Shown here: positions 4,725 through 45,812 of the stretch, in pieces
Numbering within the stretch: the first letter of the stretch is position 1
Layout of the letters: the number at the start of each line of letters is the position of its first letter
Origin: Candidatus Eiseniibacteriota bacterium
Lineage (GTDB): Bacteria > Eisenbacteria > RBG-16-71-46
Direction of reading: 5' to 3'
Length of the DNA stretch: 64,000 nucleotides
Assembly: GCA_044223005.1 (NCBI GenBank)
Contig: JBGAML010000011.1
Span: 73,169-137,168 of the forward strand
Position numbers and translations under genes: made by a program
Notes under the pieces: model-generated
Databases searched by the model: none
What the model saw: only the letters and a program-made list of their open reading frames with translations
Told to the model about the DNA's origin: nothing

Positions 4725-4752
4725 TGAAGTCAGTTGGCCGCCTTGCCGATAC
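4725..4752 (+). promoter_or_regulatory. sigma28-type promoter of csrA and flgM-like gene
   Basis: TGAAG-N15-GCCGATAC, 60 nt upstream of csrA. Confidence 0.6.
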
Positions 4753-4811: not shown

Positions 4812-5033
4812 ATGCTGGTCCTAACAAGGAAGTTAGGAGAGAACATCCGGATCGGAGACACGGTGAAGATCACCGTGCTGGAAGTCCGATCCGGCCAGGT
4901 CAAGCTCGGCATCGAGGCTCCCCCCGAGGTGAAGGTGCACCGGGAGGAGATCTACGCCCGGATCCAGGAAGAGAACCGCCGTGCCGCCGGGCAGCGTCCC
5001 GACGAGGCGGCCGGACCCGGCAAGAAGCCCTGA
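4812..5033 (+). CDS. csrA: carbon storage regulator CsrA
   Basis: [16 protein letters not shown]...[27 protein letters not shown]. Confidence 0.97.
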
Positions 5034-5100: not shown

Positions 5101-5310
5101 ATGAACGCGACTCGCCGACGCATCACCCGCAGCACTCGCAGCACCCGAGCGACCGCCGCTCCTGTCGTGGCGATCGCCGGGTATCCCGAAGTCGTGCGCC
5201 TGACGCGCGTGCGCACGGCGCTGCAGCGCATCCGGTCGGGCTACTACGACCGGGACGAGGTGAGGGATCGCCTCGCGGCCGCGGTGTTGAAGGAGCTGCA
5301 GAAGCGGTAG
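5101..5310 (+). CDS. FlgM-like anti-sigma28 factor
   Basis: 69 aa, GAGGAG RBS; C-terminal VRLTRVRTALQRIRSGYYDRDEVRDRLAAAVL resembles FlgM sigma28-binding helices. Confidence 0.65.
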   Translation: MNATRRRITRSTRSTRATAAPVVAIAGYPEVVRLTRVRTALQRIRSGYYDRDEVRDRLAAAVLKELQKR

Positions 5311-5476
5311 TCCTTCCGTCTCCCGGCGCCGCCGGATCGAGCCCGCTCATCGGGTGCGATCCGGCGGTTTCGTTTGCCCGCCGCCGCGCGCGGGCCGGCG
5401 CGCACGCAGGGCGCGGCGCGGAACGCTTCGCACGGGCGGCGGGTCGCGCCTATACTGCGGCCGCGAAGGACCGCCC

Positions 5477-6676
5477 ATGCCGACCTCCCGTTCGCGCGCC
5501 AGTGGCGCGCCTCCCCGCGAGACGCTGGTGCGCGCGCTCATGGACGACGCGCCGCACGGCGCGCTGCTGCTCGATCCGCAGGCGCGGCTCGTGGACGCCA
5601 ACGCGTCCGCCGAGCGGCTGCTCGGGTTCAGCCTCGCGCGGCTCCGCGGCAAGCCCGGCGCCGACCTGCTGCGCACGCTGGTGGCGGGCGACGACCTGGT
5701 GCGCGAGTGCTTCCGCCGCGCGCGCACCGAGCGCGAGGCCGTGCTGCACGGTCCGGGCGGCGGCGAGCTGCAGGCGCTCGTGCGTGGCTACCGGCTCGGC
5801 AAGCCGGCCTGGCTGCTGATCACGGTGCACGACCTCTCGCAGGTGCGGCGCATGCAGCAGGAGCTGCGGCGCAACGAGCGCCTCGCCACGCTCGGCCAGC
5901 TGGCCGCGGGCGTCGCGCACGAGATCCGCAACCCGCTCGCCGGGATCGGCACCAGCGCCCAGGTCCTGCTCAAGCGCTTCGAGCCCCGCGACGACCGCGC
6001 CCGCTTCGTGCAGGTGATCCTCGACGAGGTGGCTCGCCTCGACCGCATCGTGACGAGCCTCCTGCAGTACGCGCGCCCCCGCACTCCCGAGCTGCGGGCG
6101 GCCACGCTGGCGGGCTGCGTGGATCGCGTGATCGCACTCGCGGCCGACGGCATCCAGCAGGCGTCGGTGGCGGTCGAGGTCGAGGTGGCGCCCCGGCTCG
6201 CGCCCATCTACATTGATCCGGACCTCGTGTCGCAGGTGCTGCTCAACGTGACGCTGAACGCCGTGCAGGCGATGCCGTCCGGGGGCACGCTGCGCTACGA
6301 AGTGCGCAAGGTGCGCCGCCGCCGCCTGCCACGAGGGCCCGGCCGGCGCGCGAGCGACCGCCGGGGGAACCGCGGCCCGGGATCGGGCTGGATCGAGTAC
6401 CAGCAGGTGCGGGTGATCGACACGGGGACCGGGATTCCGCGTGGCGTGCTCGCGAAGATGTTCGACCCGTTCTTCACGACGAAGGCGAGCGGCACGGGCC
6501 TCGGGCTCAGCATCTCGCAGACCATCCTGCAGGAACACGGCGGCTTCATCGCCGTGGACAGCCGCGAAGGCCGCGGAACGACGGTCCTGCTCAACTTCCC
6601 GCTGGAGAAACGCCATGGCGAAAGGCGACAGCACGACGCGCACCCAGGGCGCCCAGACGCTCCTCATCGTCGATGA
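5477..6676 (+). CDS. cytoplasmic PAS sensor histidine kinase (NtrB/FleS-like)
   Basis: PAS (ANASAERLLG), H-box AHEIRNPL, N-box LNAVQAM, DTGTGI, FDPFFTTK, GTGLGL; TATACT -10 at 5451. Confidence 0.93.
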   Translation: MPTSRSRASGAPPRETLVRALMDDAPHGALLLDPQARLVDANASAERLLGFSLARLRGKPGADLLRTLVAGDDLVRECFRRARTEREAVLHGPGGGELQALVRGYRLGKPAWLLITVHDLSQVRRMQQELRRNERLATLGQLAAGVAHEIRNPLAGIGTSAQVLLKRFEPRDDRARFVQVILDEVARLDRIVTSLLQYARPRTPELRAATLAGCVDRVIALAADGIQQASVAVEVEVAPRLAPIYIDPDLVSQVLLNVTLNAVQAMPSGGTLRYEVRKVRRRRLPRGPGRRASDRRGNRGPGSGWIEYQQVRVIDTGTGIPRGVLAKMFDPFFTTKASGTGLGLSISQTILQEHGGFIAVDSREGRGTTVLLNFPLEKRHGERRQHDAHPGRPDAPHRR

Positions 6677-8042
6677 CGAGCGCTCGCTGCGCTTCAGCAT
6701 CGGCGAGTGGGCCCGCGACATGGGCTACCAGCCGATCGAGGCGCCGGGCGGACGCGAGGCGCTCGAGGCGGTGCGTGATCACGGGGCGTCGGCGGTGCTG
6801 CTGGACCTGCGGCTCGGTGACGAGGACGGCCTGCGGATCCTGAAGCAGATCCGCGAACTCGATGCCGGCATTCCCGTCGTCATGCTGACCGGGCACGGCA
6901 CCGTCGAGCATGCCGTGCGCGCGATCAAGATGGGCGCCTACGACTTCATGCTGAAGCCGCCGGACCTGGACCACCTCGGGGTGGTGCTGGAGCGGGCGCT
7001 CGAGCACGCGCGGCTGCGGCGCGAAGTCGACCACCTGCGCGCGACCGCACCGAGCGCGCAGCCGATCCTCGGCCAGAGCGAGACGCTGCAGAAGGCGCTC
7101 CAGCGCCTCGAGCGCGCCGCCCGCGGCGGCACGGCGACGGTGCTGCTGCGCGGCGAGACGGGCTCGGGCAAGGAGCTCATGGCGCGCTTCCTCCACGAGA
7201 AGAGCCCGCGCGCCGCGGGGCCATTCATCGAGCTCAACTGCTCGGCGATCCCCGAGCAGCTGCTCGAGAGCGAGCTCTACGGCCACGAGCGCGGCGCGTT
7301 CACGGACGCGAAGCGCTTCAAGAAGGGCCTCTTCGAACTCGCCGACAACGGCACGCTGTTCCTCGACGAGATCGGGGAGATGGCGCCGCAGCTGCAGGCC
7401 AAGCTCCTGCGCGTGCTCGAAACGCGGACGTTCCGCCGCGTCGGCGGCCACGCCGACATCACGGTGGACGTGCGCGTGGTCGCGGCCACGCACCGCGACC
7501 TTTCCAAGATGGTCGCCGAGGGCCGCTTCCGCGAGGACCTCTACTTCCGCCTCAACGTGGTCCCGGTCGAGGTGCCACCCCTGCGCGAGCGCGCGGGCGA
7601 CGTGGCCGTCCTCGCCGAGCACTTCGTACAGCGCTTCTGCCGCGAGCTGGGCCGCAAACCGGCGGCGCTGGCACCGGCGGCGCTCGTGCTGCTGCAGGGC
7701 TACGCGTGGCCGGGCAACGTGCGCGAGCTCAAGAACGTGATCGAGCGCGTCGTGCTGCTCGAGGCCGAGGACGACATCCTGCCCGAGCACCTGCCGCACG
7801 AGATCACGCACGGCGGAGGCGGGGCACCGGGCGCGAGCCCGGGCGCGTCGCCGTTCCCGGCCGGGCACGTGCGGCCGATGGCCGAGATCGAGAAGCTGGC
7901 GATCGAGCACGCGCTGCAGGTATGCGACGGCAACAAGACGCGCGCGGCGACGCTCCTGGGCATTTCCCGGCAGACCCTGCGGACGAAGCTCAAGGACTTC
8001 GCCCTCGGTGACGATGGAGAGGACGGGCCCGAGGGAGCCTGA
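6615..8042 (+). CDS. sigma54-dependent response regulator (REC-AAA+-Fis HTH)
   Basis: REC domain, GETGSGKE, ESELYGHERGAFTDA, FLDEIGEM, WPGNVREL, GNKTRAATLLGISRQTL. Confidence 0.95.
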   Translation: MAKGDSTTRTQGAQTLLIVDDERSLRFSIGEWARDMGYQPIEAPGGREALEAVRDHGASAVLLDLRLGDEDGLRILKQIRELDAGIPVVMLTGHGTVEHAVRAIKMGAYDFMLKPPDLDHLGVVLERALEHARLRREVDHLRATAPSAQPILGQSETLQKALQRLERAARGGTATVLLRGETGSGKELMARFLHEKSPRAAGPFIELNCSAIPEQLLESELYGHERGAFTDAKRFKKGLFELADNGTLFLDEIGEMAPQLQAKLLRVLETRTFRRVGGHADITVDVRVVAATHRDLSKMVAEGRFREDLYFRLNVVPVEVPPLRERAGDVAVLAEHFVQRFCRELGRKPAALAPAALVLLQGYAWPGNVRELKNVIERVVLLEAEDDILPEHLPHEITHGGGGAPGASPGASPFPAGHVRPMAEIEKLAIEHALQVCDGNKTRAATLLGISRQTLRTKLKDFALGDDGEDGPEGA

Positions 8043-8340: not shown

Positions 8341-8356
8341 TGGCACACGGACTGCA
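8341..8356 (+). promoter_or_regulatory. sigma54 -24/-12 promoter
   Basis: TGGCAC-ACGGA-CTGCA (GG-N10-GC), about 50 nt upstream of ATG 8407 and just downstream of the bEBP gene. Confidence 0.7.
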
Positions 8357-8406: not shown

Positions 8407-8802
8407 ATGTCGCACATCCTGCTCGTGGAAGACGAACCGACGACCTCGTGGGCGCTCGCCGAGGGTCTTGCGGACGATGGCTACACCATCGACACGTTCC
8501 GCTCGGCCGAGGAAGCGCTCGCGTGGCTGCGGCAGAACACGTGCGACCTGGTGATCACGGACCTGCGGCTTCCCGGCATGAGCGGTCTCGAGTTCGCGCG
8601 CAAGCTGCGCCGCGGCCGCCGTTCGCTGCCGGTCGTCGTCGTCTCCGCGTACGGCACCGATGCGACCGAGCGCCAGCTGCGCCAGGCCGGGGTGGTGGAC
8701 CTCTTCACGAAGCCGTTCCACGTGGATGCGCTGCGTCGCGCGGTTCGCCGCGCGCTGGTCGAGGAGACCGCGCCGCGCTCCAACGCCCGGAGAGCTGCCT
8801 GA
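8407..8802 (+). CDS. single-domain response regulator
   Basis: ILLVEDE, VITDLRLPGMSG, VSAYG, TKPF; ends RRAA. Confidence 0.92.
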   Translation: MSHILLVEDEPTTSWALAEGLADDGYTIDTFRSAEEALAWLRQNTCDLVITDLRLPGMSGLEFARKLRRGRRSLPVVVVSAYGTDATERQLRQAGVVDLFTKPFHVDALRRAVRRALVEETAPRSNARRAA

Positions 8803-9050
8803 TGCGACGCCTGCCGAACGAAATCGACCGCCTGCCCGCCGATCTCCGCATCGCCGCCGAGATCGAAGCCCTCGAGCCCCAGGTCCGCCAGGTCCTCACG
8901 CTCCGGCTGCTCGAGAAGCTCTCGCCCGTCGAGACCGCCGGCGCGCTGCGCATGACCGTCCGCCAGGTGGAGCGCACGCTGAACGCCGCGCTCGACCGCA
9001 TCTCGACCCACGTCGCCCAGGGCCGCCGCCCGCTGCGGAGGGCCGCGTGA
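8802..9050 (+). CDS. stand-alone sigma70 region 4-like HTH protein (82 aa)
   Basis: TGATG coupling; IEALEPQVRQVLTLRLLEKLSPVETAGALRMTVRQVERTLNAALDRI resembles region 4 of the FliA downstream; ends RRAA. Confidence 0.75.
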   Translation: MRRLPNEIDRLPADLRIAAEIEALEPQVRQVLTLRLLEKLSPVETAGALRMTVRQVERTLNAALDRISTHVAQGRRPLRRAA

Positions 9051-9277
9051 GCCTGAACGCCCCGATGACCGCGAGCGCGGATCGCGCCCGCACGCTGCCG
9101 GCCTCGCCGGCCGCGCGCCTCGACGCCGCCTCGCGCGCCGTGTCGTCGCTCCGCGAGGAGCAGCGCCGGCTCGAGCGGCTCGGCCTCGAGCTGCCGCTCG
9201 CGCGCTGCCACGAGCAGCTCCGGTTCTGGAACTTCGTGCACGCCGTCTGCTCGCTGGCGCCGGAGGTGCGCGCGTGA
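9047..9277 (+). CDS. small helical hypothetical protein (76 aa)
   Basis: GTGA overlaps at both ends within the operon. Confidence 0.65.
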   Translation: MSLNAPMTASADRARTLPASPAARLDAASRAVSSLREEQRRLERLGLELPLARCHEQLRFWNFVHAVCSLAPEVRA

Positions 9278-10167
9278 GCCGCGACCGCCGCCCGAACGTG
9301 CGCATCGTGCCCACGCCCCCCGTGCCGGCGCCCGCCGTGAGCGAGCACCCGGCGCAGTGGAGCCGCCCGCGCATGCACACGATCGTCGTCACCAGCGGCA
9401 AGGGCGGCGTCGGCAAGAGCAACCTCGCGGCGAACCTCGCGATCGCGCTCGGCGAGCGCGGTGCCCGCGTGCTGCTGCTGGACGGCGACCTCGCCCAGGC
9501 GAACCTCGACCTGCTGCTCGGCCTGCACCCGCGCTTCGACCTGCAGCACGTCCTCGACGGCCAGAAGACGCTCGACGAGATCGTCGTCAACGGCCCCGAG
9601 AACGTGCGGCTCGTCCCGGCCGCCTCGGGCGTGCCCGAGCTGGCCGACCTCGACGACTTTCGCCGCGAGCGGCTCGTGCGCTCGCTCGGCACGATCGACG
9701 CCGGCGCGGACGTGCTCCTGATCGACACCGCGACGGGCGTGTCGCGCCAGACGACCGAGTTCTGCCGCATCGCGAACGAAGTGCTGGTCGTGACGACGCC
9801 GGAGATGCCCGCGTTCTCGGACGCGTACTCGCTCGTCAAGCTGCTGCAGAAGCAGGGCGGGCTGGCGCGCGCACCGCGCCTCGTCGTGAACATGGCGACG
9901 GGGGCGGAGGACGCCGAGGACACCGCGCACCGCATCCGCCTCGTCGCGCGCCGCTTCCTGCAGATCGAGCTCGAGTGCCTGGGCGTGGTGCCGTTCGACC
10001 CGCACGTGCCCCGCGCGGTCCGGCTGCAGGAGCCGGTCCTCACCGCTTTCCCGAAGTCCCCGGCCGCGGCGGCCTATCGCGCCCTGGCCAGCCTGCTGTG
10101 GAAACCGCTGCCGTCCGCCCCGACGTCCGACGAGTCGCCGCTCCCCGCCCAGCGCCTCGAAGCCTAG
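9274..10167 (+). CDS. flhG: MinD/FlhG (FleN)-family ATPase
   Basis: TSGKGGVGKSN, LDGDLAQANLDLLLG, PAASGV, IDTATG, VTTPE..AFSDAYSLVK; adjacent to fliA. Confidence 0.85.
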   Translation: MSRDRRPNVRIVPTPPVPAPAVSEHPAQWSRPRMHTIVVTSGKGGVGKSNLAANLAIALGERGARVLLLDGDLAQANLDLLLGLHPRFDLQHVLDGQKTLDEIVVNGPENVRLVPAASGVPELADLDDFRRERLVRSLGTIDAGADVLLIDTATGVSRQTTEFCRIANEVLVVTTPEMPAFSDAYSLVKLLQKQGGLARAPRLVVNMATGAEDAEDTAHRIRLVARRFLQIELECLGVVPFDPHVPRAVRLQEPVLTAFPKSPAAAAYRALASLLWKPLPSAPTSDESPLPAQRLEA

Positions 10168-10178
10168 GAGGTCTCCCC

Positions 10179-11048
10179 ATGCCCCGCGCCGCCACCCTGA
10201 CCGCTTCGAAGTCCTCGAAGTCCACGACTGCCGCTCGCCGGCCGGCCCTCAAGGTCGTCCCGGGCCGTCGTGCCGCCACCCGTGCGGCCGCGCCGGCCGC
10301 CGCGCCCGCGCCTGCGCCGGTCACGTACAACAAGAACGACCTGCTCAAGCGCTTCGCGCCGCTCGTGCGGCACGTGGTGGAGCGGGTCGCGGCGACGCTG
10401 CCGCGCAACGTGGACCACGAGGACCTCTACTCGGCGGGCGTTCTGGGCCTGCTCGACGCGCATGCGAAGTTCGACACGCGCAAGGGCGTCAAGTTCGAGA
10501 CCTACGCGGTGTGGCGCATCAAGGGTGCGGTGCTCGACCAGCTGCGCGCGCTCGACTGGGCGTCGCGCTCCATGCGGCGCAAGGCGCGCAACCTCGACGG
10601 CGTGACGCGCAAGCTCGACCAGAAGCTCGGCCGCGCGGCGTCGGAAGAGGAAGTGGCGCGCGAGCTGAAGATGTCGCGCAACGACTTCTACCGGCTGCTC
10701 GACCACGTCCGCGGCGCCGTGCTCGTCTCGCTCGACGAGGCGCGCTCGAACGACGGCGAGGACCAGGGCACGCTGGCCGACCACCTCGCCGATCCCAACG
10801 CGCCGGACCTCGAGGAGCGGCTCGCCGAGGACCAGCAGCGGCTGGTGCTGCTGCAGACGATCGACCTGCTCCCCGAGCAGGAGCGGCTGGTGGTGGCGCT
10901 CTACTACTACGAGCACCTGACGCTCAAGGAGATCGGCCGCACGCTGGGCATCTCCGAGTCGCGGGTGTCGCAGGTCCACACGCGGGCGATGACCCGCCTC
11001 AAGCTGCGGGTCGCGAAGGCGATGCACCAGCACGAAGAGGCCGCATGA
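10179..11048 (+). CDS. fliA: FliA/WhiG-family sigma28 factor
   Basis: AGGAGG RBS; DLYSAGVLGLLDA, KFETYAVWRIKGAVLDQLRALDW, LTLKEIGRTLGISESRVSQVH. Confidence 0.95.
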   Translation: MPRAATLTASKSSKSTTAARRPALKVVPGRRAATRAAAPAAAPAPAPVTYNKNDLLKRFAPLVRHVVERVAATLPRNVDHEDLYSAGVLGLLDAHAKFDTRKGVKFETYAVWRIKGAVLDQLRALDWASRSMRRKARNLDGVTRKLDQKLGRAASEEEVARELKMSRNDFYRLLDHVRGAVLVSLDEARSNDGEDQGTLADHLADPNAPDLEERLAEDQQRLVLLQTIDLLPEQERLVVALYYYEHLTLKEIGRTLGISESRVSQVHTRAMTRLKLRVAKAMHQHEEAA

Positions 11049-11437
11049 CGCCTCCACTCATGGCCGGGCCGCCGACGCCCTGGGACGTCCTGCACCAGCG
11101 GCTGCGGCGGGAGGTCGAGGCCGTGCGGGAGCGCGGCGACGAGCCGCAGGCCGCGGCGCTCGCGACGATCCTCGACGACTGGTGGCCGGAACAGCAGGCG
11201 TGGTGCGAGCGGGCGTGCGACGTGCTCGGCGTGCATCACGAGATCAACAACGCACTGGTGGGCATCCGGGGCAACGCGCAGTTGCTCCTCCGCAACCCCG
11301 CGGCATTGCCGGCGGGAATCCGTGAACGACTGGAGGTCGTCCTCCGTGAATCGGGCCGAATCCAAGAAGCGACCAGCCGCCTCCGCGAGCTCAAGACGGG
11401 CCTCGGTGGCCCCGCTTCCGGCGTCCGCGCGGCCTGA
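11045..11437 (+). CDS. stand-alone HisKA/DHp protein lacking ATPase domain (putative phosphotransferase)
   Basis: ATGA coupling; H-box HHEINNALVGIRGNAQLL; 130 aa, no N/G boxes; ends VRAA. Confidence 0.7.
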   Translation: MTPPLMAGPPTPWDVLHQRLRREVEAVRERGDEPQAAALATILDDWWPEQQAWCERACDVLGVHHEINNALVGIRGNAQLLLRNPAALPAGIRERLEVVLRESGRIQEATSRLRELKTGLGGPASGVRAA

Positions 11438-12401
11438 GCGCCGCGAGGCTCCGGAACACGGCGGGCCGCGCGAGCGCAAGCGCGACGCGCGCGGCACGAT
11501 CGAGATCCCGCGCGGTCACGACCGCCGGGCGGCGTCGGGCTGCCTGTGGGACGCCTGCGAGGCGCTGCTGGCGTCGCTGGCGGAGCCCGAGGCGCTGCCG
11601 CGGGCGCTGGACAAGCTGCTCGACGCGTTCGAGTGCGACGGAGTCGCGCTGCACGCGGTCGGGCCGCAGGGCGTGCTCGAACCGTGGTGTGCGCGCGGGG
11701 ACTGGGAGACGGCGCCCGGCGACCTGCGCGAGTGCATCGGCCTGCCGCTCTTCCGTGGGCGCGAGCGCGTCGGGGCGCTCGACCTGCGCGGGCGCAAGGG
11801 CCAGCGCTGGCGGCCGGAGCAGCAGTCGCTCGTGCGCACGGCGTCCGGGGCGCTCGGCGCCGCACTGGGTGCGCGGCTCGAGCTCGAACGGCTGCGGCGC
11901 GCGCCGGGCCGCGACGCGGTCACGGGCCTGCCGGACGCGAAGGCGTTCCACGCACGGCTGCTCGAGGAGTTCGGGCGCGCGCAGCGCAGCGGCCTGCCGC
12001 TCGCGGTCGTGACGCTCGACCTCGATCACTTCGCGGCGCTGAACCAGAAGTACGACCGCGCGACGGGAGACCAGGTCCTCGCCGAGTGCGCGCTCGTGCT
12101 CAAGGTGACGCTGCGCGAGGGCGACTACCTGGCGCGGCTCACGGGCAACGAGTTCGGGATCGTGCTGCCCGACTGCGACCTCGCGCCGGCCCGCCGGCTC
12201 GCGGAGCGGCTGCGGCACGCGGTCGAGGAGCACCGTTTCGCGCGCGCCGGCAAGCTGAGCTGCTCGGCCGGCGTGGCGTCGTCCCCCCGGGACGGCATGG
12301 ATGCGACGGAGTTGCTGGCGGCCGCCGAGCAGGCGCTCGGCGTGGCCAAGAAGGCGGGGCGCCACCGGACGGCGGCGAGCGGTCCCTCGCACACCCACTG
12401 A
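11406..12401 (+). CDS. GAF-like plus degenerate GGDEF protein
   Basis: DAVTGLPD, DLDHFAALN, LREGDYLARLTGNEF, SAGVA; start uncertain (11322 or 11406). Confidence 0.85.
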   Translation: MAPLPASARPERREAPEHGGPRERKRDARGTIEIPRGHDRRAASGCLWDACEALLASLAEPEALPRALDKLLDAFECDGVALHAVGPQGVLEPWCARGDWETAPGDLRECIGLPLFRGRERVGALDLRGRKGQRWRPEQQSLVRTASGALGAALGARLELERLRRAPGRDAVTGLPDAKAFHARLLEEFGRAQRSGLPLAVVTLDLDHFAALNQKYDRATGDQVLAECALVLKVTLREGDYLARLTGNEFGIVLPDCDLAPARRLAERLRHAVEEHRFARAGKLSCSAGVASSPRDGMDATELLAAAEQALGVAKKAGRHRTAASGPSHTH

Positions 12402-12430
12402 GACGATCTCGCGCGGAAGGCGACGCGAAC

Positions 12431-14191
<1,761 letters not shown>

Positions 14192-14298
14192 CACGCGCCG
14201 AGCACGCGACGCGCATCCGTCGCGCGGTCCCGGCGAACGCCGCGGGACCGCGCGACCTCGTTTCGCCCCGGCGGTCGCTCGTCGCTCGCGCTGCGTCC

Positions 14299-14327
14299 TT
14301 GACCCCCGCGCGCGGCACGCGTAGGTT
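14299..14327 (+). promoter_or_regulatory. sigma70-type promoter
   Basis: TTGACC-N17-TAGGTT upstream of ATG 14383. Confidence 0.55.
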
Positions 14328-14382
14328 GCGTCGGGCGTCGCACGAGGCGACGCCGAACAGGCCCGCACCCATCACCCCTCCG

Positions 14383-16149
14383 ATGAGCGCCAGGGACGAC
14401 GCCAGCAGCCTCGAAGCACGATCGCGCGGTCGCCGCGCGTTGACGCTCGCACTCGCCACGCTGGCGGGTGCCGCCGTCGGTGTCGTCGTCGCGCTGCTCG
14501 GAACCCCGGCCGACCGTCCGTTCTTCGAGACCGTCGTCGCCTGGTCGGGCCCCGCGCCCGTCGCCCGCGAGTGGCCGCGCGAGCCGCGCGCCGGCGAATC
14601 CGCGACGCTGCACCCGCGCGCATCGGGTCGCGATCTCGTGCTCCGCACGCCCCGGGCGCCCGAAGCGCGCGAACTGGCGGCCGCGCTGCTCGCGCGCCGC
14701 AACGGCGCGATGGCCGAACTGCTCGACGCCCGCAGCGGCCTGCTGCACGCGTGGCAGGCCGGCGACGTCGCGGGCCCGCGCCTCGAGCGCAGCCCCGCCG
14801 TGCGCACCGCGTCGCTGCTGCTGGCCGCCGCGCGCCAGCGCCGCGGCCAGGCGCTCGCCGCGCCGTCGCGCTGGCGGCCGGCCGACGCCCAGGCACCCGA
14901 TGCCGCCGCGCCGCCGTCGATCGCCGAAGCGCTCGCCGATCTCGAGCGCGCCGCGCTCACGGGTGATGCCGCCGCGACGGCCGACGCGCTGGTCGGCGAG
15001 GCGACGGTGGAGGAGGACTGGTTCGCGTCGCCGTCCGCACCGCGTGAGGGGGCGTGGCGTGCGTGGCAGCTCGACGCGGCGGATTCGCTCGACGCGCTGG
15101 CGGCGCTCGCCGTGGGCGGCCGCGCGAACGCGCTCGATTCGGCGAAGGCGGCCGAGCCGTTCGCGACCGCCGAGCTCGCCGGCCGCATGCCGCCGCCCTA
15201 CGACGGCCTGCTGCGCGCGATCGCCCCGGGCCCGGCGCCCGAGGCGAGCGCGATCGCTTCGGCGTGGGGCCGCTGGCTCGGCATGGGCGCGCTGCTGGGC
15301 GGCCTCGTCTCGCTGCTCGCGGCGCTCGCGGGCTTCGCGCTGCGTGCCCCGCGGACGCGTCCCGAGCCGCGCGTGCCCGTCACCGCGCTCTCGCTGCGCG
15401 ATCCGGCGGCGCGTGGCGCGTGGCTGCACGTGGTCGCCGGGCCGACGCCCGCCGCGATCGCGCGTGCGGCGCTCGAGCTGGCCTCGCACGCGCTGGCGCG
15501 CGGCGAGCGCGTGCTCGTGGTCGACGGTGGCCCGAAGCTGCGCCTGCACGAGCGCTTCGGCCGCGAGGCGCGCTGGGGCCTCATGGAGTGCCTGCTCGCG
15601 GACATGCCGATCATCGGCTTGATCCAGTACGGCGGCCGCCCGGGCTTCTACCTGCTGGCCCACGGCAACCCGGCCCGCGGCGAGGGCTGGGCAGCCCTTG
15701 GCCAGCGCCTGGACGACGCCCGCCCGCACTTTGGCCGGGTGATCCTGGCGCTCGATTCCGGCGCCCCCCGGGCGATCGGGGATGCCCTCGCCGGACGGGC
15801 CCTCGAGGGCTGGTGGGCGGCGACGGTCGAGCGGCTGCCCCGGGCCGCGGACGACCTCACGGCGCGGCTCGGTATCGCGTTCTCCAGCTTGGACTTGTCG
15901 GCCGTCGAGGAAGTGTCGCTGCAGGCCCTGGGCGAGCGGGTCGGGGTGCTGATCGAGCACCGTCCGGCCGAGCCCGATGCGCCCGTCGCGATGCTCCCCG
16001 TGGCCCTGCCGGAACCCCTGCCGACGGCGCCCTTGGAGCCGGTCGTTCTGGACTGCGACTTGCAAGTCCAGCAGCGGCTGCGCTTCCTGGCGTGGATGCG
16101 CCGGGTGCAGTCGGAACGCCGTCGCAGCGAGGTCGGCTCGGCCAGCTGA
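14383..16149 (+). CDS. Wzc/CapB-like membrane protein with degenerate P-loop domain
   Basis: Two TM segments flanking a helical region, then ALELASHALARGERVLVVDG..LRLHERFG...GLMECL; no Walker A. Confidence 0.55.
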   Translation: MSARDDASSLEARSRGRRALTLALATLAGAAVGVVVALLGTPADRPFFETVVAWSGPAPVAREWPREPRAGESATLHPRASGRDLVLRTPRAPEARELAAALLARRNGAMAELLDARSGLLHAWQAGDVAGPRLERSPAVRTASLLLAAARQRRGQALAAPSRWRPADAQAPDAAAPPSIAEALADLERAALTGDAAATADALVGEATVEEDWFASPSAPREGAWRAWQLDAADSLDALAALAVGGRANALDSAKAAEPFATAELAGRMPPPYDGLLRAIAPGPAPEASAIASAWGRWLGMGALLGGLVSLLAALAGFALRAPRTRPEPRVPVTALSLRDPAARGAWLHVVAGPTPAAIARAALELASHALARGERVLVVDGGPKLRLHERFGREARWGLMECLLADMPIIGLIQYGGRPGFYLLAHGNPARGEGWAALGQRLDDARPHFGRVILALDSGAPRAIGDALAGRALEGWWAATVERLPRAADDLTARLGIAFSSLDLSAVEEVSLQALGERVGVLIEHRPAEPDAPVAMLPVALPEPLPTAPLEPVVLDCDLQVQQRLRFLAWMRRVQSERRRSEVGSAS

Positions 16150-16342
16150 GCCGTTCGCGTCGCGACGCCGGAAGGGACCCGCTCCACGGAACGGAGCGCG
16201 TCGCGTCGCACGTGGTTCTCGCGCGAGTCGCGCGTTCCCGCCCTGCCTCGATCGATCGGCACGGCCGGAGCCCGGGACGTCGCGCGGAGCGGGCCTCGGG
16301 GCCCGGACCGCATGCGGCGTGGCGGCACGACTCGAGGATCGT

Positions 16343-17350
16343 TTGCACGCACCCACGCGCGTCCTGCTCGTGGAGCACCTGGACGCCATCGGCGCCGCAC
16401 CCGCGGACGCCCGCCTGCGCACGCACGCGTTGCGCGCGGCCGGCTACGCCGTCGAAGGTCTCGTCGTCGGCAGCGAGCGCGCCGACGACCTGCTCTTCCC
16501 GCTGCAGGAGCGCCGCGTCGGCACGGGCTTCGACGTGCTCGAATCGAGCACCGCGGGACTCGCCCAGTTGCGCTCGCGCGTGAGCGCGAGCCGCGCGGGG
16601 CTCGTGCTGTGGGCGAGCGCGACGCCGGGCGGTGGCGACGCCGCGCGCGTGCTGCCGGGCGACCGGCCGGCGCGCTGGTGGCCGACGGGCTTCGCGCCCG
16701 AGCGCATGCTCGCGGGACCGCTCGCGCCGCTGGATGCGTCGTTCGCGCCGCTCGCGGGTGGCGCGCTGCCCGACGACGACGAGCGCCGCCGGCTCTCGCT
16801 CTGGGACGGGCCCTACGCGCTCGTGGTGGCGCCGCCGGCGGCGGCGACCGCGGCCGCGCTGATCGAAGCGTTCGCCGAGGCGACCACCGATCGCGAGGAG
16901 ACGGACCTCGTCGTGCTGGACCATCCCGCGCCCGCGCTCGAAGCGCTCGCGCGCCGCACGGGCGTCGCGCAGCGCGTGCACTTCGTGGGGCCCGCGCCGC
17001 GCGAGGCCGAATACGCGTGGCTCGGCAGTGCCGCGCTCGCGCTGGTGCCCGGCGACCAGCCGCTCGCGGGCGGGCTGCTGCTGCGCGCGCTGGCCGCGGG
17101 CTGCCCGCTGCTGCCGGTGGGCGAGGCGGCGCGGCCGCTCGGTGCGTGGCTCGCGGCGCAGGGACTCGCGTGGCGCGCGAGCGGCACGAGCGTTTCGGCG
17201 GCGATCGAGGCCGCGCTCGAGCGAGAGGCCGCGGTCGCGGACGCGAGCGCGCGGGGGCGCGAGCTGGCGCGCGCGCACGGCCCGCAGGCCCTCACGGCAC
17301 GGCTGGCCGCGGTGCTCGACGGCGGCGCGGCCGAGCGGCGGGCGGCGTGA
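16343..17350 (+). CDS. divergent GT-B (group 1) glycosyltransferase-like protein
   Basis: LIEAFA...LEALARRTGVAQRVHFVG...LLRALAAGCPLL; TTG start inferred; ends RRAA. Confidence 0.65.
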   Translation: MHAPTRVLLVEHLDAIGAAPADARLRTHALRAAGYAVEGLVVGSERADDLLFPLQERRVGTGFDVLESSTAGLAQLRSRVSASRAGLVLWASATPGGGDAARVLPGDRPARWWPTGFAPERMLAGPLAPLDASFAPLAGGALPDDDERRRLSLWDGPYALVVAPPAAATAAALIEAFAEATTDREETDLVVLDHPAPALEALARRTGVAQRVHFVGPAPREAEYAWLGSAALALVPGDQPLAGGLLLRALAAGCPLLPVGEAARPLGAWLAAQGLAWRASGTSVSAAIEAALEREAAVADASARGRELARAHGPQALTARLAAVLDGGAAERRAA

Positions 17351-17448
17351 TTGCGCTTCCCGCAATGGCCGTCTAGGCTTTTCGTGAACGAGTCTCGGCT
17401 CCCCGCGACGGGGGCCGCGAGTGGACCTGGCGAACGAGGAGGAGCAGC

Positions 17449-18387
17449 GTGCGCATCCTGGTGACCGGCGGTGCGGGATTCATCGGTTCGAACGTCGTCG
17501 ACCGTTTCGTGGCGCTGGGCCACGAGGTCGCCGTGTTCGACAACCTCTCGTCGGGCTTCCGCGAGTTCGTGAACCCGAAGGCCAAGTTCTACGAAGGCGA
17601 CCTCGCCGACGCCGGAGCGGTCGAGCGCAGCGTCGCCGACTTCCGCCCCGACATCGTGGACCACCACGCCGCGCAGATCGACGTGCGCAAGTCCGTCGCC
17701 GATCCCGCGTTCGACGCCATGGTCAACGTCGTCGGCTCGATCGGCCTGCTGCAGGCCTGCCAGCGCCACGGCGTGCGCAAGGTCGTCTACGCGTCCACCG
17801 GCGGCGCGCTCTACGGCGAAGGCCGCTTCCTGCCCGCGACCGAGGACCACCCGGTGAACCCGGAGGCCCCGTACGGCGCGAGCAAGCACACGGTGGAGCA
17901 CTACCTCTACATCTGGAAGCTGCTCCACGGTCTCGACTACACCGTGCTGCGCTACCCCAACGTCTACGGCCCGCGCCAGAACCCGCACGGCGAGGCCGGC
18001 GTGAACGCGATCTTCATCGGCCTCATGCTCGAGGGGAAGCGCCCGCGCATCTTCGGCGACGGCAACGCCGTCCGCGACTACCTCTACGTGGACGACGTCG
18101 TCGAGGGCAACGTGCTCGCGCTCGAGAAGGGCAGCGGCGAGATGGTGAACCTCGGCACCGGCGTGGGCACGAGCGTCAACGACATCGTGCGCGAGTTGCA
18201 GAAGATCACGGGCTTCACGGAAGGCGCGATCCACGACGCCGCCCGCCCCGGCGAGGTGCAGAAGATCTACCTCGACGCGACGCGCGCGAAGCAGGTCCTC
18301 GGCTGGGAGCCGAAGATCTCGTTCGCCGAAGGCCTGCGCCGCACGGTGGACTGGTCGCGACACAACAAGCTGCCCGAGAAGCACTGA
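17449..18387 (+). CDS. NAD-dependent nucleotide-sugar epimerase (UDP-glucose 4-epimerase-like SDR)
   Basis: TGGAGFIGS, YGASK, LRYPNVYGPRQ, RDYLYVDD. Confidence 0.93.
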   Translation: MRILVTGGAGFIGSNVVDRFVALGHEVAVFDNLSSGFREFVNPKAKFYEGDLADAGAVERSVADFRPDIVDHHAAQIDVRKSVADPAFDAMVNVVGSIGLLQACQRHGVRKVVYASTGGALYGEGRFLPATEDHPVNPEAPYGASKHTVEHYLYIWKLLHGLDYTVLRYPNVYGPRQNPHGEAGVNAIFIGLMLEGKRPRIFGDGNAVRDYLYVDDVVEGNVLALEKGSGEMVNLGTGVGTSVNDIVRELQKITGFTEGAIHDAARPGEVQKIYLDATRAKQVLGWEPKISFAEGLRRTVDWSRHNKLPEKH

Positions 18388-20774: not shown

Positions 20775-22787
20775 TCACCAGATCCGCGCGCGCAGCTCGC
20801 TCTTGCGGACCATCGGATCGCCGTCCTTGCAGCCGAAGGCCTTCGCGAACTCCTCGAGGTTGGAGAACGGTCCGTTCACGCGCCAGACCGACGGCGAGTG
20901 CGGATCGGTCTCGACCTGCGAACGCAGGTCCTCGGGGGTCTCGAGCGTGCGCCAGACGCGCGCCCATGCGAGGAAGAACCGCTGCTCGGGCGTGAAGCCG
21001 TCGCGCAGCACGGGCTTCTGGCCGGCCGTGGCCTTCTGGAACGCGGCGTACGCCACGGCGAGGCCGCCCAGGTCGGCGATGTTCTCGCCCAGCGTGACCT
21101 TGCCGTTCAGGTGCACGGAGTCGAGCACGGTGTACGCCGAGAACTGCGCGGCCACCTTGTCGGCGCGTTCCTTGTAGCGGCTCGCGTCCTCGGGCGTCCA
21201 CCAGTCGCGCAGGTTGCCGTCGGCGTCGAACTGCCGTCCGCGATCGTCGAAACCGTGCGTCATCTCGTGCCCGATCACGGCGCCGATCGCGCCGTAGTTC
21301 AGCGCGTCGTCCCACTTCGGGTCGAAGAAGGGCGGCTGCAGGATCCCGGCGGGGAAGTTGATGCTGTTGACCGACGACGAATAGAAGGCGTTCACCGTCG
21401 GCGCGCTCATGGACCACTCGCCGCGGTCGACCGGGCCGCCGATCCGCCCGATGTTGCGCGCGATCTGCCAGCGCACGGCGGCGGAGCGGTTCGCGAACCA
21501 CGACTCGCGCGAGATGCGCACGTTGGCGTAGTCGCGCCAGGTGTTCGGGTAGCCGATCTTCTCCTCGAACGCCTCGAGCTTGCCGCGCGCGGCGAGGCGG
21601 GTCGCGTCGCTCATCCAGTCGAGCGCGGCGATGCGATCGCCCAGCGACGATTCCAGGTTGCGCACCAGCGCGAGCGCGCGCTCGCGCGCCTGCGGCGGGA
21701 ACTGCTCCTTCACGTACGCGCGCCCGAGCAGGTCGCCCAGGTCGCCGTCGGTGGCGGCGATGCAGCGCTTCCAGCGCGGGAGCAGCTCGGTGGCGCCGGT
21801 CAGCCGCTTGCGCCACGCGAAGTCCTCGTCGACGAACGCCTGCGACAGCGTGGGCGAGGCCTCGCGCACGACGTTCCAGCGCAGGTAGGCCTTCCAGTCG
21901 TCGATCGGCGTGCCCGTCACGCGCGCCGCGAAGCCGCGGGCGAAGCCGGGCTGCATGACGTTGACCGAATCCGGCACGCGCATGCCGCGGCGGCCGAAGT
22001 AGGCGGCCCAGTCGAAGCCGGGCGTCCAGAGCTTCAGCGAATCGAGCGGCACGAAGTGGTAGACCGCGCGCGGATCGCGGCGCTGCTCGCGCGTCATCGA
22101 AGCCTCGGCGAGCGCGGTCTCCAACGCCATGATGCGCGCGGCCTCGCCGTCCGGATCTTTGCGGCCCAGGAGCTTCAGCACGCGCCCCACGTGCGCGACG
22201 TATTCCGTGCGCAGCGCGGCCGAGGCCGAGTCCGGCTTGAAGTAGTAGTCGCGCTCGGGCATGCCGAGGCCGCCCTGGCCGGTGACGGCGATCGTCAGCC
22301 GGCTGCGCTTGGCGTCCGGCGCGCCGCCGAACAGGAAGCCCGCCCGGATCCCGCCCGCGTGCAGCGAGCCGAACTCGCCGGCCAGGTCCGAGGCGTTCGC
22401 GATCGCGTCGATCGCGTCCAGGTCCGCCTGGAGCGGCGCGATCCCGGCGCGGTCCGCGGCCACGGAGTCCATGCACGCGGCGAAGTAGTCGCCGATGCGG
22501 CGCGTGTTGCTGTCGGCCTTCGCGCCCGCGGCCGCCGCGCGCTCGAGGATGCCGCGCAGCACCTGCTCGTTGCGGTCGGCGAGTTCGTCGAAGCCGCCGT
22601 AGCTGCCGTAACCGGCGGGCATCTTCGTGTTCGCGAGCCAGTGGCCCTCGGCGTACTGGTAGAAATCGCGGCACGGCGAACATGTCGTGTCCATGTCGGC
22701 GCGGTTCCAGTACGACGGCGTCGCGGCGAACGACGGCGCCACCGCCGCGAGCAGCAGGCAGGTGGTCCAGCGGAGGAAACGCGGCAT
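20775..22787 (-). CDS. M13 family (neprilysin/PepO-like) metallopeptidase, copy 2
   Basis: Signal peptide, PCRDFYQYA, VNAFY, HEMTHGFD, GENIAD, DPHSP, ends RARIW. Confidence 0.95.
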   Translation of the reverse strand: MPRFLRWTTCLLLAAVAPSFAATPSYWNRADMDTTCSPCRDFYQYAEGHWLANTKMPAGYGSYGGFDELADRNEQVLRGILERAAAAGAKADSNTRRIGDYFAACMDSVAADRAGIAPLQADLDAIDAIANASDLAGEFGSLHAGGIRAGFLFGGAPDAKRSRLTIAVTGQGGLGMPERDYYFKPDSASAALRTEYVAHVGRVLKLLGRKDPDGEAARIMALETALAEASMTREQRRDPRAVYHFVPLDSLKLWTPGFDWAAYFGRRGMRVPDSVNVMQPGFARGFAARVTGTPIDDWKAYLRWNVVREASPTLSQAFVDEDFAWRKRLTGATELLPRWKRCIAATDGDLGDLLGRAYVKEQFPPQARERALALVRNLESSLGDRIAALDWMSDATRLAARGKLEAFEEKIGYPNTWRDYANVRISRESWFANRSAAVRWQIARNIGRIGGPVDRGEWSMSAPTVNAFYSSSVNSINFPAGILQPPFFDPKWDDALNYGAIGAVIGHEMTHGFDDRGRQFDADGNLRDWWTPEDASRYKERADKVAAQFSAYTVLDSVHLNGKVTLGENIADLGGLAVAYAAFQKATAGQKPVLRDGFTPEQRFFLAWARVWRTLETPEDLRSQVETDPHSPSVWRVNGPFSNLEEFAKAFGCKDGDPMVRKSELRARIW

Positions 22788-22812: not shown

Positions 22813-22831
22813 GGGGGGGGGGGGGGGGGGG
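22813..22831 (+). repeat. 19-nt G homopolymer (probable sequencing/assembly artefact)
   Basis: Lies exactly where the stop codon of the upstream M13 gene is expected. Confidence 0.8.
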
Positions 22832-24841: not shown

Positions 24842-25143
24842 CGGGTGAATCCCTCGATCCGAAGGAGAGGTCGACGACACGGCCGTGGGGAGGCCGACAG
24901 GGGACAGCCGGGCGCACGGTAGGGCAGCCGGGGACCGGCGCCGGGGGAAAGTGCACGAGCGTGCCGTCCCGGGCGCCGAATGCGCCACCGCCGCGCGGTG
25001 GCTCCGAGCCCTCCGGACGCAGTGGCCCGCAGCGGGGCATTGCCCGGCACGCCCGCGCCGCCTACCCTGATCGCTTCCCGCGCCGGCCCCCGCGGGGCCG
25101 CGCCGTGCCGGGGCCGCCCCAGGACTTCGGAGCGACTCCGCGT

Positions 25144-28057: not shown

Positions 28058-28651
28058 ATGACGGACGCACGTCCCGAAGCACTCGACGACGAGGCGCTGT
28101 TCGATCTCGCCGTGTCGCAGCCCGGCACGGCACGCGGGCGCGCGGCCGCGTCGTGCCTGCTCGGACGTCACCAGCAACGTGTCTACCTGTGGTGCCGGCG
28201 GTACGTGAGGGACCACGACCAGGCGCTCGACCTGGCGCAGGAGGTGCTCTTGAGCGCGTATCGCGCGATGGCGGGCTTCGAAGGCCGGTCGCGCTTCTCG
28301 TCGTGGCTGTTCGCCATCGCGCGCAACAAGTGCCTCAACGCCGTGCGCGCGAAGCGACTGTTCGTGGACGACGACGCCGATCCGGACACGATCGACTCCG
28401 ACGCGCCCCTGCCCGAGGCCACGCTCGAACTGGAACAGGACCACGAGCGGCTGCGCGGCGTGCTCGCGCGCCATCTCGACCCGCCCGAGCGCGAGGCGCT
28501 CTGGCTCTCGGTCGCGGAGCGGCTGTCCGTGGACGAGATCACCCGCGTCATGGGACTCGGCAACGCGACCGGCGCCCGCGGCCTGCTGCAGAAGGCCCGT
28601 CGCCGCCTGCGCGCCGCGCTCGAGCGCGGCCACCTGGAGGAGCCGTCGTGA
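28058..28651 (+). CDS. ECF sigma factor
   Basis: ALDLAQEVLL, FEGRSRFSSWLFAIARNKCLN, region 4 LSVDEITRVMG...ARRRLR. Confidence 0.92.
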   Translation: MTDARPEALDDEALFDLAVSQPGTARGRAAASCLLGRHQQRVYLWCRRYVRDHDQALDLAQEVLLSAYRAMAGFEGRSRFSSWLFAIARNKCLNAVRAKRLFVDDDADPDTIDSDAPLPEATLELEQDHERLRGVLARHLDPPEREALWLSVAERLSVDEITRVMGLGNATGARGLLQKARRRLRAALERGHLEEPS

Positions 28652-38582: not shown

Positions 38583-38668
38583 CGCGTGCGTGCATGTCCC
38601 GGATCCGCCGCGCCGGCCCCGCTCGCGGAAGTCTTCCGGGAACGTGCGGACGCACGCTCGGAGTGCGC

Positions 38669-43181: not shown

Positions 43182-43201
<20 letters not shown>
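42704..43201 (+). CDS. His-rich beta-sandwich-like hypothetical protein
   Basis: GAAGGGG RBS; ends WRYDITV...TLDPMIII. Confidence 0.65.

Positions 43202-45812
<2,611 letters not shown>

Follow-up and report, generated by a model that had tools for sequence, protein, structure and literature searches.

C-terminal alanine residues are linked to the ClpXP protease by graded variants of the ssrA tag (LVA, AAV, and ASV) and by the Ala-tailing activity of RqcH. Among the ends that the ClpXP of E. coli recognises are a pair of C-terminal alanines and the RRKKAI of MuA (PMC5143411). Recognition of Ala-Ala-COO- is treated in PMC7652416. Two classes of C-terminal ClpX signal are tabulated, following Flynn et al. 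2003, in PMC9775585 (Table 2). The ssrA-like C-motif 1 comprises LAA, NAA, PAA, and EAA. The MuA-like C-motif 2 comprises RRKKAI, RAKKVA, HIKKAS, RVKHPA, and HARKVA. Some transcriptional regulators have encoded ends of this type. For CtrA, of Caulobacter, changing Ala-Ala to Asp-Asp is stabilising (PMC4433202). In Streptomyces, the sigma factor AntA is a target of ClpXP that Asp-Asp stabilises, and 67 of 71 orthologues end in Ala-Ala (PMC7142297). ClgR, PopR, and Lon, also of Streptomyces, have Ala-Ala ends in common and are destroyed by ClpP1P2 (PMC9775585). Here, we describe a 64,000 nucleotide stretch of DNA (approximately 72% G+C, hereafter the window) from a soil member of the uncultured Candidatus Eisenbacteria. 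Within it, a cluster of signalling genes, and a glycosyltransferase-like gene close by, encode unrelated proteins with the same Ala-Ala ending. Judged by comparison with related genomes, purifying selection maintains this ending throughout the phylum, on the products of five to seven neighbouring genes that are unrelated to each other.

Genes were identified with a home-made caller, for which codon usage was trained on the long open reading frames (ORFs) of the window. This gave 49 genes (50 in a first pass). Note that stop positions are independent of the caller. Five of the 49 products end in Ala-Ala (-AA) and all five are encoded inside one span of ten genes:

8407–8802, plus strand: REC, a single-domain receiver (Pfam Response_reg, residues 4–114 of 131); tail SNARRAA
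8802–9050, plus strand: sigma4-only, a sigma-70 region-4-only protein (Pfam Sigma70_r4_2, residues 16–66 of 82); tail PLRRAA
9047–9277, plus strand: sm76, a 76-amino acid protein; tail PEVRA, with a single Ala
9274–10167, plus strand: MinD/ParA-type P-loop ATPase (Pfam ParA/CbiA); tail QRLEA
10179–11048, plus strand: FliA/WhiG-family sigma factor (TIGR02479, 246.4 bits against a cut-off of 189.6); tail QHEEAA
11045/11060–11437, plus strand: DHp-only protein, with HisKA and without an ATPase domain (Pfam HisKA, 35.5 bits against 26.9); tail SGVRAA
11406–12401, plus strand: GAF-GGDEF protein (Pfam GGDEF, E=2.1e-32), start uncertain; ends SHTH
12431–14191, plus strand: REC-GAF-HisKA-HATPase kinase (Pfam); tail STAAVA
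14440–16149, plus strand: unk569, a membrane protein with no Pfam or NCBIfam match; ends GSAS
16343–17350, plus strand: GT-like, a GT-B-fold glycosyltransferase-like protein; tail AAERRAA

The five ends are NARRAA (REC), PLRRAA (sigma4-only), HEEAA (FliA/WhiG), GVRAA (DHp-only), and ERRAA (GT-like). The six consecutive genes between 8407 and 11437 end AA, AA, RA, EA, AA, and AA. An original prediction for this stretch had listed the same five tails, and had stated that all six of these proteins end in Ala and that no other called protein ends in -AA. Reading of the stops and tails bears this out exactly, with -AA at 0 of 39 genes outside the span, and the domain names offered there hold in Pfam and NCBIfam searches. 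A single terminal Ala is frequent in the window (15 of 49 proteins), and overall Ala content is 14%. Hence, an end in Ala says far less than an end in Ala-Ala.

The confinement of five -AA genes to a ten-gene span has a permutation P of 0.0028. Comparing 5/10 genes with 0/39 gives P = 1.3e-4 (Fisher) and, for a background of 0.03, the probability that at least five of ten genes end in -AA is 5e-6. Composition alone results in 2.8% -AA, as judged from ORFs of 100 codons or more that were not called as genes in the window and 80 related loci (138 of 4970). In the same loci, outside the cluster, -AA ends 3 of 308 proteins from families shared with the window flanks, and 2 of 44 with no window relative (score >30). 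We conclude that the excess of -AA at this locus is real and beyond chance.

The related loci derive from a scan of species-representative genomes with the FliA-like protein (54–93% identity), and are mostly from Candidatus Eisenbacteria metagenome-assembled genomes (MAGs). Orthologues were assigned by best match, synteny, and an alignment reaching both C-termini. Gene order, from trpA to the epimerase gene, is conserved across the loci. We also sampled 120 homologues each of GT-like, DHp-only, and REC from a collection of 5.8 billion proteins. Note that, because frameshifts occur in MAGs (e.g. locus L042), the counts of -AA are lower bounds. For GT-like, every one of 27 orthologues (31–55% identity) ends in -AA, as do 117 of 120 homologues; two of the three homologues without -AA are short (272 and 277 amino acids). 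The corresponding values for DHp-only are 50/58 and 117/120. FliA ends in -AA at 65 of 80 loci, or 59 of 74 with one row per species. For REC, the ending is found in 46 of 68 syntenic orthologues and 104 of 120 database homologues (RKAA 71, RRAA 23). Sigma4-only has -AA in 24 of 45 orthologues, and the remainder end -AS and -VA. The ending is also frequent in two families whose window members lack it: the REC-GAF kinase (29/58, with terminal Ala in 42/58) and sm76 (21/61). By the same procedure, no -AA was detected among orthologues of the neighbouring NtrC-type activator (0/61), histidine kinase HK1 (0/50), CsrA (0/33), sm47 (0/30), PP2C phosphatase (0/29), TrpA (0/34), g583 (0/33), or unk569 (0/32), and it was rare for the GGDEF protein (2/67) and the epimerase (2/37). 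For the MinD-type ATPase, 74 of 75 orthologues end in Ala, and none in -AA.

The original prediction had proposed conservation in orthologues as a check, and the ends are indeed kept across 80 loci and hundreds of metagenomic homologues. It had also named Ala richness as a way to explain the ends away. This explanation fails, since Ala richness predicts only ~1–3% -AA. Among 150 FliA/WhiG representatives of 50%-identity clusters, ten end in -AA and three of these ten are >60% identical to our query. Hence, the ending is a trait of this lineage's FliA, not of the family, and the FliA/WhiG carrier differs in this from its relatives in other lineages. On a tree built from MinD and FliA, the minimum number of changes in -AA state is eight each for REC, sigma4-only, FliA, and the kinase, six each for sm76 and DHp-only, and zero for GT-like. 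Repeated changes of this kind imply that the motif has been retained against repeated opportunity to drift.

Conserved C-terminal residues can also reflect constraints on the DNA. Four junctions in the window have a GGAG-like Shine-Dalgarno (SD) sequence in codons -4/-3 together with an ATGA, GTGA, or TGATG overlap. REC ends CGG AGA GCT GCC TGA TG, which holds the SD of the next gene and the TGATG overlap. The ends of sigma4-only (CGG AGG GCC GCG TGA; GTGA overlap with the next gene), sm76 (GAG GTG CGC GCG TGA), and FliA (GAA GAG GCC GCA TGA; ATGA overlap with the DHp-only gene) are similar. In related loci, all four genes most often meet the next gene with a -4/-1 overlap. Since the codons AGG, AGA, and GAG carry the SD, the presence of Arg or Glu at -3 and -4 is plausibly explained. 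The Ala-Ala is not. The -1 Ala codon of GT-like is GCC (12), GCG (12), GCT (2), or GCA (1), the -2 Ala codon of FliA is GCG (40), GCC (20), GCT (3), or GCA (2), and the -1 Ala codon of REC is GCG (23), GCA (13), or GCC (10). The -AA end is found at -4/-1 overlaps (REC 28/35, FliA 26/27) and also at non-overlapping junctions (REC 18/30, FliA 35/47, DHp-only 25/28, GT-like 25/25). GT-like has no coupled downstream gene; the gap is approximately 100 nucleotides in the window and all 25 called gaps exceed 20 nucleotides. Similarly, the kinase is separated from the downstream gene by >20 nucleotides in 42 of 43 orthologues with a called neighbour.

Positions -1 and -2 are the most conserved in the tails (FliA 89%/85%, DHp-only 91%/88%, GT-like 100%/100%, REC 82%/74%), and positions -5 to -10 are mostly variable. 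In the GT-like alignment, the final two Ala residues are at least 90% conserved, compared to a mean column identity of 48%. Taken together, the synonymous Ala codons, the persistence of -AA without overlap, the uncoupled GT-like and kinase genes, and the pattern of conservation mean that overlap does not explain Ala-Ala. The GTGA/ATGA overlap bias, raised in the original prediction as a possible source of the ends, therefore does not account for them. Instead, these comparisons support a selected, shared C-terminal Ala-Ala motif, with selection acting on the protein.

The motif is usually [R/K/E]-A-A-COOH, and each family has its own version. REC ends L-R-[KR]-A-A, with Arg at -4 in 63% of cases and Lys or Arg at -3 in 69%. 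Sigma4-only ends L-R-R-A-[AS] (Arg at -4 in 93%, Arg at -3 in 82%, and Arg or Lys at -3 in 98%). The FliA tail, [ED]-E-A-A, is acidic. DHp-only ends [SQPT]-R-A-A after a variable linker of 7–8 residues, with a minority of -HAA, and GT-like ends x-R-A-A (Arg at -4 in 44% and at -3 in 67%), again with some -HAA. The natural variants are small or aliphatic (-VA, -AS, -SA, -GA, and -DA), with -xC in one REC subclade. Members of that subclade end -AAC, -TSC, -ASC, or -AKC (loci L033, L039, L043, L050, L066, L068, and L069), Cys-ending REC proteins also occur among the database sequences P0462, P0463, P0474, and others, and species with a Cys-ending REC tend to have a FliA ending -DA or -EC. The tails of REC, sigma4-only, FliA, and the kinase extend 11–17 residues past the last Pfam domain, and that of DHp-only is of approximately this length. 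In the AlphaFold2 (AF2) model of DHp-only, which has four helices and a free tail, residues 120–130 are coil and the predicted local distance difference test (pLDDT) score is <50 for residues 127–130.

These variants, and the basic residues at -3 and -4, mean that the endings coincide with the two ClpX C-terminal classes tabulated in PMC9775585. All five window proteins have the terminal Ala-Ala with a free alpha-carboxylate that defines the ssrA-like C-motif 1. They may also, like ssrA, present this end on an exposed tail, and the FliA -EAA matches the RplJ-type example (PMC9775585). However, the ssrA tag is added co-translationally by transfer-messenger RNA (tmRNA) and has Leu at -3; the tails described here are encoded in the genome and have Arg, Lys, Glu, or His at this position. 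The C-motif 2 pattern, in which a basic pair precedes a final pair of small or aliphatic residues, is found for REC (RKAA, RRAA, RKVA, RKSA), sigma4-only (RRAA, RRAS, RKAS, RRVA), and GT-like (RRAA). It is not seen in FliA, which has Glu-Glu, or at -4 of DHp-only, so these two are not basic-basic. In addition, the E. coli examples of C-motif 2, as tabulated, mostly end -VA, -AS, or -AI, and not -AA. When random C-terminal tags were screened in E. coli, 91% of the 100 strongest contained Ala-Ala; hydrophobic residues or Arg at -5/-4 helped, among them Leu at -5 and Arg at -4, and Pro, His, Gly, and short polar residues such as Ser were unfavourable at -3 (PMC10862746). By these context rules, which may not transfer from E. 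coli, REC and sigma4-only fit as L-R-[RK]-A-A, FliA has E-E-A-A, and DHp-only and GT-like have some -HAA.

How does the locus compare with the regulators introduced above? AntA is similar in that it is a sigma factor ending in Ala-Ala, conserved in 67/71 orthologues compared to 65/80 for FliA here, and conservation was what first hinted at proteolysis in that case too (PMC7142297). AntA differs in being a single orphan extracytoplasmic function (ECF) sigma factor, for which degradation and stabilisation by Asp-Asp have been shown in vitro and in vivo (PMC7142297). Our factor is of the FliA/WhiG type, is known from sequence alone, and has an ending common to four to six unrelated neighbours. 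The CtrA system of Caulobacter, with its CckA-ChpT-CpdR pathway, resembles the locus by combining a regulator that has C-terminal alanines with a kinase, a DHp-type protein, and a single-domain receiver (PMC4433202, PMC11519897). The corresponding parts here are the kinase, DHp-only with its conserved His, and REC. On the other hand, the locus is without a CtrA-type DNA-binding regulator, there is no known adaptor or polar hub, and the phylum is unrelated. As to whether REC is a CpdR-type adaptor, it scores 56.6 bits with the CpdR model NF046022, for which the cut-off is 180, and does better, at 83 bits, with models of NtrC-type receivers. Because of this, we do not file REC as CpdR and use the comparison as an analogy only.

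The Streptomyces proteins ClgR, PopR, and Lon provide a precedent for linked members of a regulon that have a common Ala-Ala and are controlled post-translationally (PMC9775585). Those genes are scattered in the genome and regulate protease genes (PMC9775585); in our case the carriers are adjacent operon genes with no protease gene nearby. In the parts of the literature on ClpX Ala-Ala degrons, Eisenbacteria, and FliA/sigma-28 degradation that were available to us, neither this locus nor an operon-wide Ala-Ala ending is described. Individual regulators with an Ala-Ala degron, such as CtrA, AntA, and ClgR, are known already. The novelty here lies in the spread of a conserved ending across an operon, on proteins of unrelated families, in a phylum without cultured members.

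All genes of the locus between 4.8 and 18.4 kb, which were annotated with Pfam and NCBIfam, are on the plus strand. The genes and elements flanking the ten-gene span are:

2071–4551, minus strand: PP2C (SpoIIE-type) membrane phosphatase, with ~10 hydrophobic segments and a weak PDZ_6 match
4726–4752, plus strand: sigma-28 (FliA)-type promoter-like element, GAAGTC...GCCGATAC, a pattern match with three mismatches, upstream of csrA
4812–5033, plus strand: csrA, encoding CsrA (Pfam CsrA, E=3.4e-26); ends GKKP
5167–5310, plus strand: sm47, a 47-amino acid ORF
5350–5364: terminator-like hairpin
5427–5456: sigma-70-like promoter
5528–6676, plus strand: HK1, a PAS-HisKA-HATPase histidine kinase (Pfam); ends HRR
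6615–8042, plus strand: NtrC-type sigma-54 activator, REC-AAA-HTH_8 (Pfam Sigma54_activat, E=2.6e-69); ends PEGA
8341–8356, plus strand: sigma-54 promoter-like element TGGCACACGGACTGCA, 52–66 nucleotides upstream of the REC start and adjoining the NtrC-type activator gene
17449–18387, plus strand: NAD-dependent sugar epimerase/dehydratase (Pfam Epimerase, E=8e-63); ends PEKH

The genes from REC to DHp-only overlap or are at most 11 nucleotides apart, and the kinase gene starts 29 nucleotides after the GGDEF gene. In the window, the stretch from the REC gene through the kinase gene comprises eight genes, of which seven overlap or are closely spaced. The sequence TGGCACACGGACTGCA is the only match in the window to TGGCAC-N5-TTGC with a single mismatch. 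Within 200 nucleotides upstream of REC, TGGCA[CT]-N5-NTGC is present at 63 of 67 loci, compared to 0–1 in nine other sets of upstream regions and 8/71 for MinD. Given the conservation of this element, and its place beside the gene for an NtrC-type activator, the eight-gene operon seems to be turned on by HK1 and the activator. The second element lies upstream of csrA. A GCCGATAC -10 box, with a [TC][CTG]AAGT box approximately 15–16 nucleotides further upstream, is found within the 220 nucleotides preceding csrA at 31 of 35 loci. The hexamer CCGATA is scarce in other upstream regions (REC 1/68, HK1 2/49, GT-like 1/27, unk569 4/33, epimerase 3/38, sm47 1/30). Hence, sigma-28-type promoters for GT-like, unk569, and the epimerase are unsupported. 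The element before csrA indicates that the FliA/WhiG factor of the operon probably drives this gene. Because the terminator-like hairpin and sigma-70-like promoter separate csrA-sm47 from HK1-NtrC, we do not claim a closed feedback loop from FliA to NtrC. The wiring is compatible with a design of burst then decay, and is no demonstration of one.

How might the shared ending be explained? The account we favour, in which we place about equal belief and doubt, is that it serves as a genome-encoded degron, either ssrA-like (C-motif 1) or MuA-like (C-motif 2), for an AAA+ protease, of which ClpXP is the likeliest. The receiver, sigma4-only, FliA/WhiG, DHp-only, and GT-B-like proteins of the window, which are unrelated and cytoplasmic, would then have a single motif in common, joined in many species by sm76 and the REC-GAF kinase. 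The tails would make their carriers intrinsically short-lived substrates of the protease. With the eight-gene operon placed behind the conserved sigma-54 promoter, and beside the gene for the NtrC-type activator, the level of the module would follow activator-driven synthesis and drop fast once synthesis stopped. Short-lived products would thus give a response that decays quickly after the signal ends. Protease recognition, protease identity, instability, and any timing behaviour are what we infer from the patterns described. The original prediction, of coordinated degradation that gives a pulse or switch, is thus supported in part, namely for the shared and selected motif. If the tails are degrons, the operon would offer a clear example, from nature, of gene products designed for joint transience. 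It would mean that degrons can be found from sequence alone, via cluster-specific terminal conservation combined with synonymous codon variation, and would provide a first handle on regulation in a phylum without a cultured member.

A number of observations weigh against this account. In E. coli, Ala-Ala is necessary and not sufficient, and 39% of Ala-Ala 5-mers are weak (PMC10862746). Here, the -3 residue is Arg, Lys, or Glu, not the Leu of ssrA, and the -HAA end of some DHp-only and GT-like proteins has the His disfavoured by E. coli rules. In the GT-like model, the last block has a pLDDT of ~52 and terminates a helix, so that a free tail is not obvious. Only 34% of sm76 and 50% of kinase orthologues end in -AA, and the window copies end -RA and -VA. 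The ending has been lost or changed at least 6–8 times in each family except GT-like. Joint loss between families, on supported branches, was not visible, with only 2–5 independent contrasts to judge from. Conserved ends other than -AA also exist at the locus (Arg at 96% for HK1, His at 84% for the GGDEF protein, and Ala at 99% for MinD), and part of the tail conservation, namely Arg or Glu at -3/-4, may act on nucleotides. No clpX, clpP, clpA, lon, adaptor, or tmRNA gene was detected within the 64-kb window by domain, tRNA/tmRNA, and Rfam scans (the last two of which gave no match of any kind), and Eisenbacteria are an uncultured phylum.

Other explanations must be weighed against the same data. 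One is that Ala-Ala-COOH serves for docking to a non-proteolytic reader, so that the carriers are co-localised or co-regulated and not destroyed. This reader could be the operon's MinD/ParA-type ATPase, of a type that uses short basic peptides to position or activate partner proteins, or another common partner. Any common reader would explain a conserved motif on unrelated proteins, the tails of REC, sigma4-only, and GT-like are strongly basic, and the MinD-like member of the operon itself never ends in -AA (0/75). Yet the FliA tails are acidic (EEAA), so basic character is not common to all. To our knowledge, the only readers of Ala-Ala-COOH are AAA+ proteases and PDZ-type tail-specific proteases, which also counts against docking. 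The one PDZ-like domain nearby, in the PP2C phosphatase, sits between the first two of ~10 hydrophobic segments and is probably extracytoplasmic; the phosphatase was dropped as a candidate reader for this reason. We consider docking unlikely, if worth keeping in mind. A closer relative of our favoured account is that the tails are degrons for a different AAA+ protease (ClpAP/ClpCP, FtsH, or Lon), or need a dedicated adaptor. The same sequence evidence applies, and four of the five ATP-dependent proteases of E. coli can recognise the ssrA tag (PMC10862746). However, strong short C-terminal degrons were found in the E. coli screen only with ClpXP present (PMC10862746), and the regulators AntA, CtrA, and ClgR are each degraded by Clp (PMC7142297, PMC4433202, PMC9775585). 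This variant, too, strikes us as rather improbable.

The remaining alternatives need no reader of the tail. If Ala-Ala were a by-product of translational coupling, it would be an inherited GC-rich spacer between the SD and the overlapping start of the next gene. The four window junctions with an SD in codons -4/-3 and an overlap, and the prevalence of -4/-1 overlaps, are what this predicts. Conversely, the idea is inapplicable to the kinase and to GT-like, where gaps exceed 20 nucleotides and -AA is found in 27/27 orthologues and 117/120 homologues. The -AA end is kept without overlap in REC (18/30), FliA (35/47), and DHp-only (25/28), third bases of both Ala codons vary freely, and a spacer needs no double Ala. 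Coupling, as a source of Ala-Ala, is largely refuted already and we regard it as very improbable. Least credible of all, with almost no probability in our estimation, is chance combined with the Ala richness of a 72% G+C genome. It is true that terminal Ala (15/49) and Ala content (14%) are high, and that the pattern was picked post hoc. Nevertheless, the background of -AA is 2.8% (138/4970), other genes give 3/308, 2/44, and 0/39, clustering has P values of 0.003 to 1e-4, and conservation across 80 loci and hundreds of homologues refutes the idea.

Assuming that the tails are degrons, the account can be pushed further. The locus might be a self-erasing developmental module, in which near-every protein has one degron 'code', and a kinase-DHp-REC phosphorelay gates the protease in the manner of CckA-ChpT-CpdR, having evolved independently. 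The carriers would be a receiver, a sigma-4 decoy, FliA/WhiG, a ChpT-like DHp protein, a kinase, and an exopolysaccharide enzyme. This set would correspond to the sigma-54-driven operon plus the downstream glycosyltransferase, with degron timing across the operon and not control of a single regulator. We think such a scheme unlikely.

Turning to individual genes, assignment of the sigma factor to the FliA/WhiG family is confirmed by the presence of Pfam Sigma70_r2, r3, and r4. Sigma4-only was considered as a mimic of FliA region 4, and BLASTP (29% identity over 48 residues, E = 0.038) provided no specific support. DHp-only belongs with HisKA (DHp) phosphotransfer domains by Pfam score and by its H-box His, conserved in 120 of 120 homologues (HEINNAL 117, HDINNAL 3). 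Its best DHp matches in Foldseek, to ZraS, ERS1, and GacS, are weak (E >0.3). With an anti-sigma role in mind, the complex of FliA residues 45–289 with two DHp-only chains was predicted; scores of 0.00 and 0.00, against a mark of 0.32, speak neither for nor against binding. No RsiG-type c-di-GMP motif was seen by eye in DHp-only. For sm76, there is no Pfam or NCBIfam match, and scores in the ESM Atlas of at most 0.80 give no lead. The MinD/ParA-type ATPase is below the cut-offs of the NCBIfam minD models. It has a conserved R-L-E-A end and no obvious C-terminal amphipathic helix, and its stop is usually TAG, fused to the fliA SD as TAGGAGG.

The GAF-GGDEF protein has the GGDEF domain fold and a degenerate active site, which reads TGNEF in the window; the motif is highly variable, and canonical in 7 of 63 aligned orthologues. 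The protein is therefore probably not an active cyclase, and we make no claim of c-di-GMP synthesis. The unk569 protein has two hydrophobic segments and matches Wzz/GumC/ParA-type clusters in the ESM Atlas at 0.87–0.90, which are leads only; it is possibly polysaccharide co-polymerase-like. The start of GT-like is 16370 according to the caller and 16343 in the database form of 335 amino acids. The Pfam Glyco_trans_1_4 match is weak and below the cut-off. However, the AF2 model (pLDDT 89.7) retrieves the GT-B enzymes 3ot5, 2vsn, 2iv7, and 4n9w in Foldseek, with E values of ~1e-8 to 1e-9. Together, unk569, the GT-B protein, and the epimerase (14440–18387) suggest a surface-polysaccharide output downstream of the operon. 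The PP2C phosphatase gene is kept beside the locus in 29–36 related genomes.

Elsewhere in the window, the caller missed one gene, for a second M13 peptidase (~22.8–24.99 kb, minus strand), which does not end in -AA as read, and for which the C-terminus is uncertain, probably owing to a frameshift. The M13 peptidase genes are in tandem on the minus strand, at 20775–22787 and ~22830–24988. The upstream copy has no stop at the usual end of the family; after ...KDGDPMV the frame stays open across a run of prolines and extends ~180 codons into the following gene. A homopolymer tract seems to have shifted the frame, whether in the genome itself or through faulty assembly. Between 25144 and 34614, on the plus strand, are genes for a CHAT-TPR protein (929 amino acids), an ECF-type sigma factor (28058–28651), a 232-amino acid ORF, and a 1715-amino acid FG-GAP repeat protein. 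A STAS (SpoIIAA-like) protein, at 38663–39052 on the plus strand, and a Ser/Thr kinase with TPR repeats, at 43182–45812 on the minus strand, are further partner-switching or signalling parts of the window.

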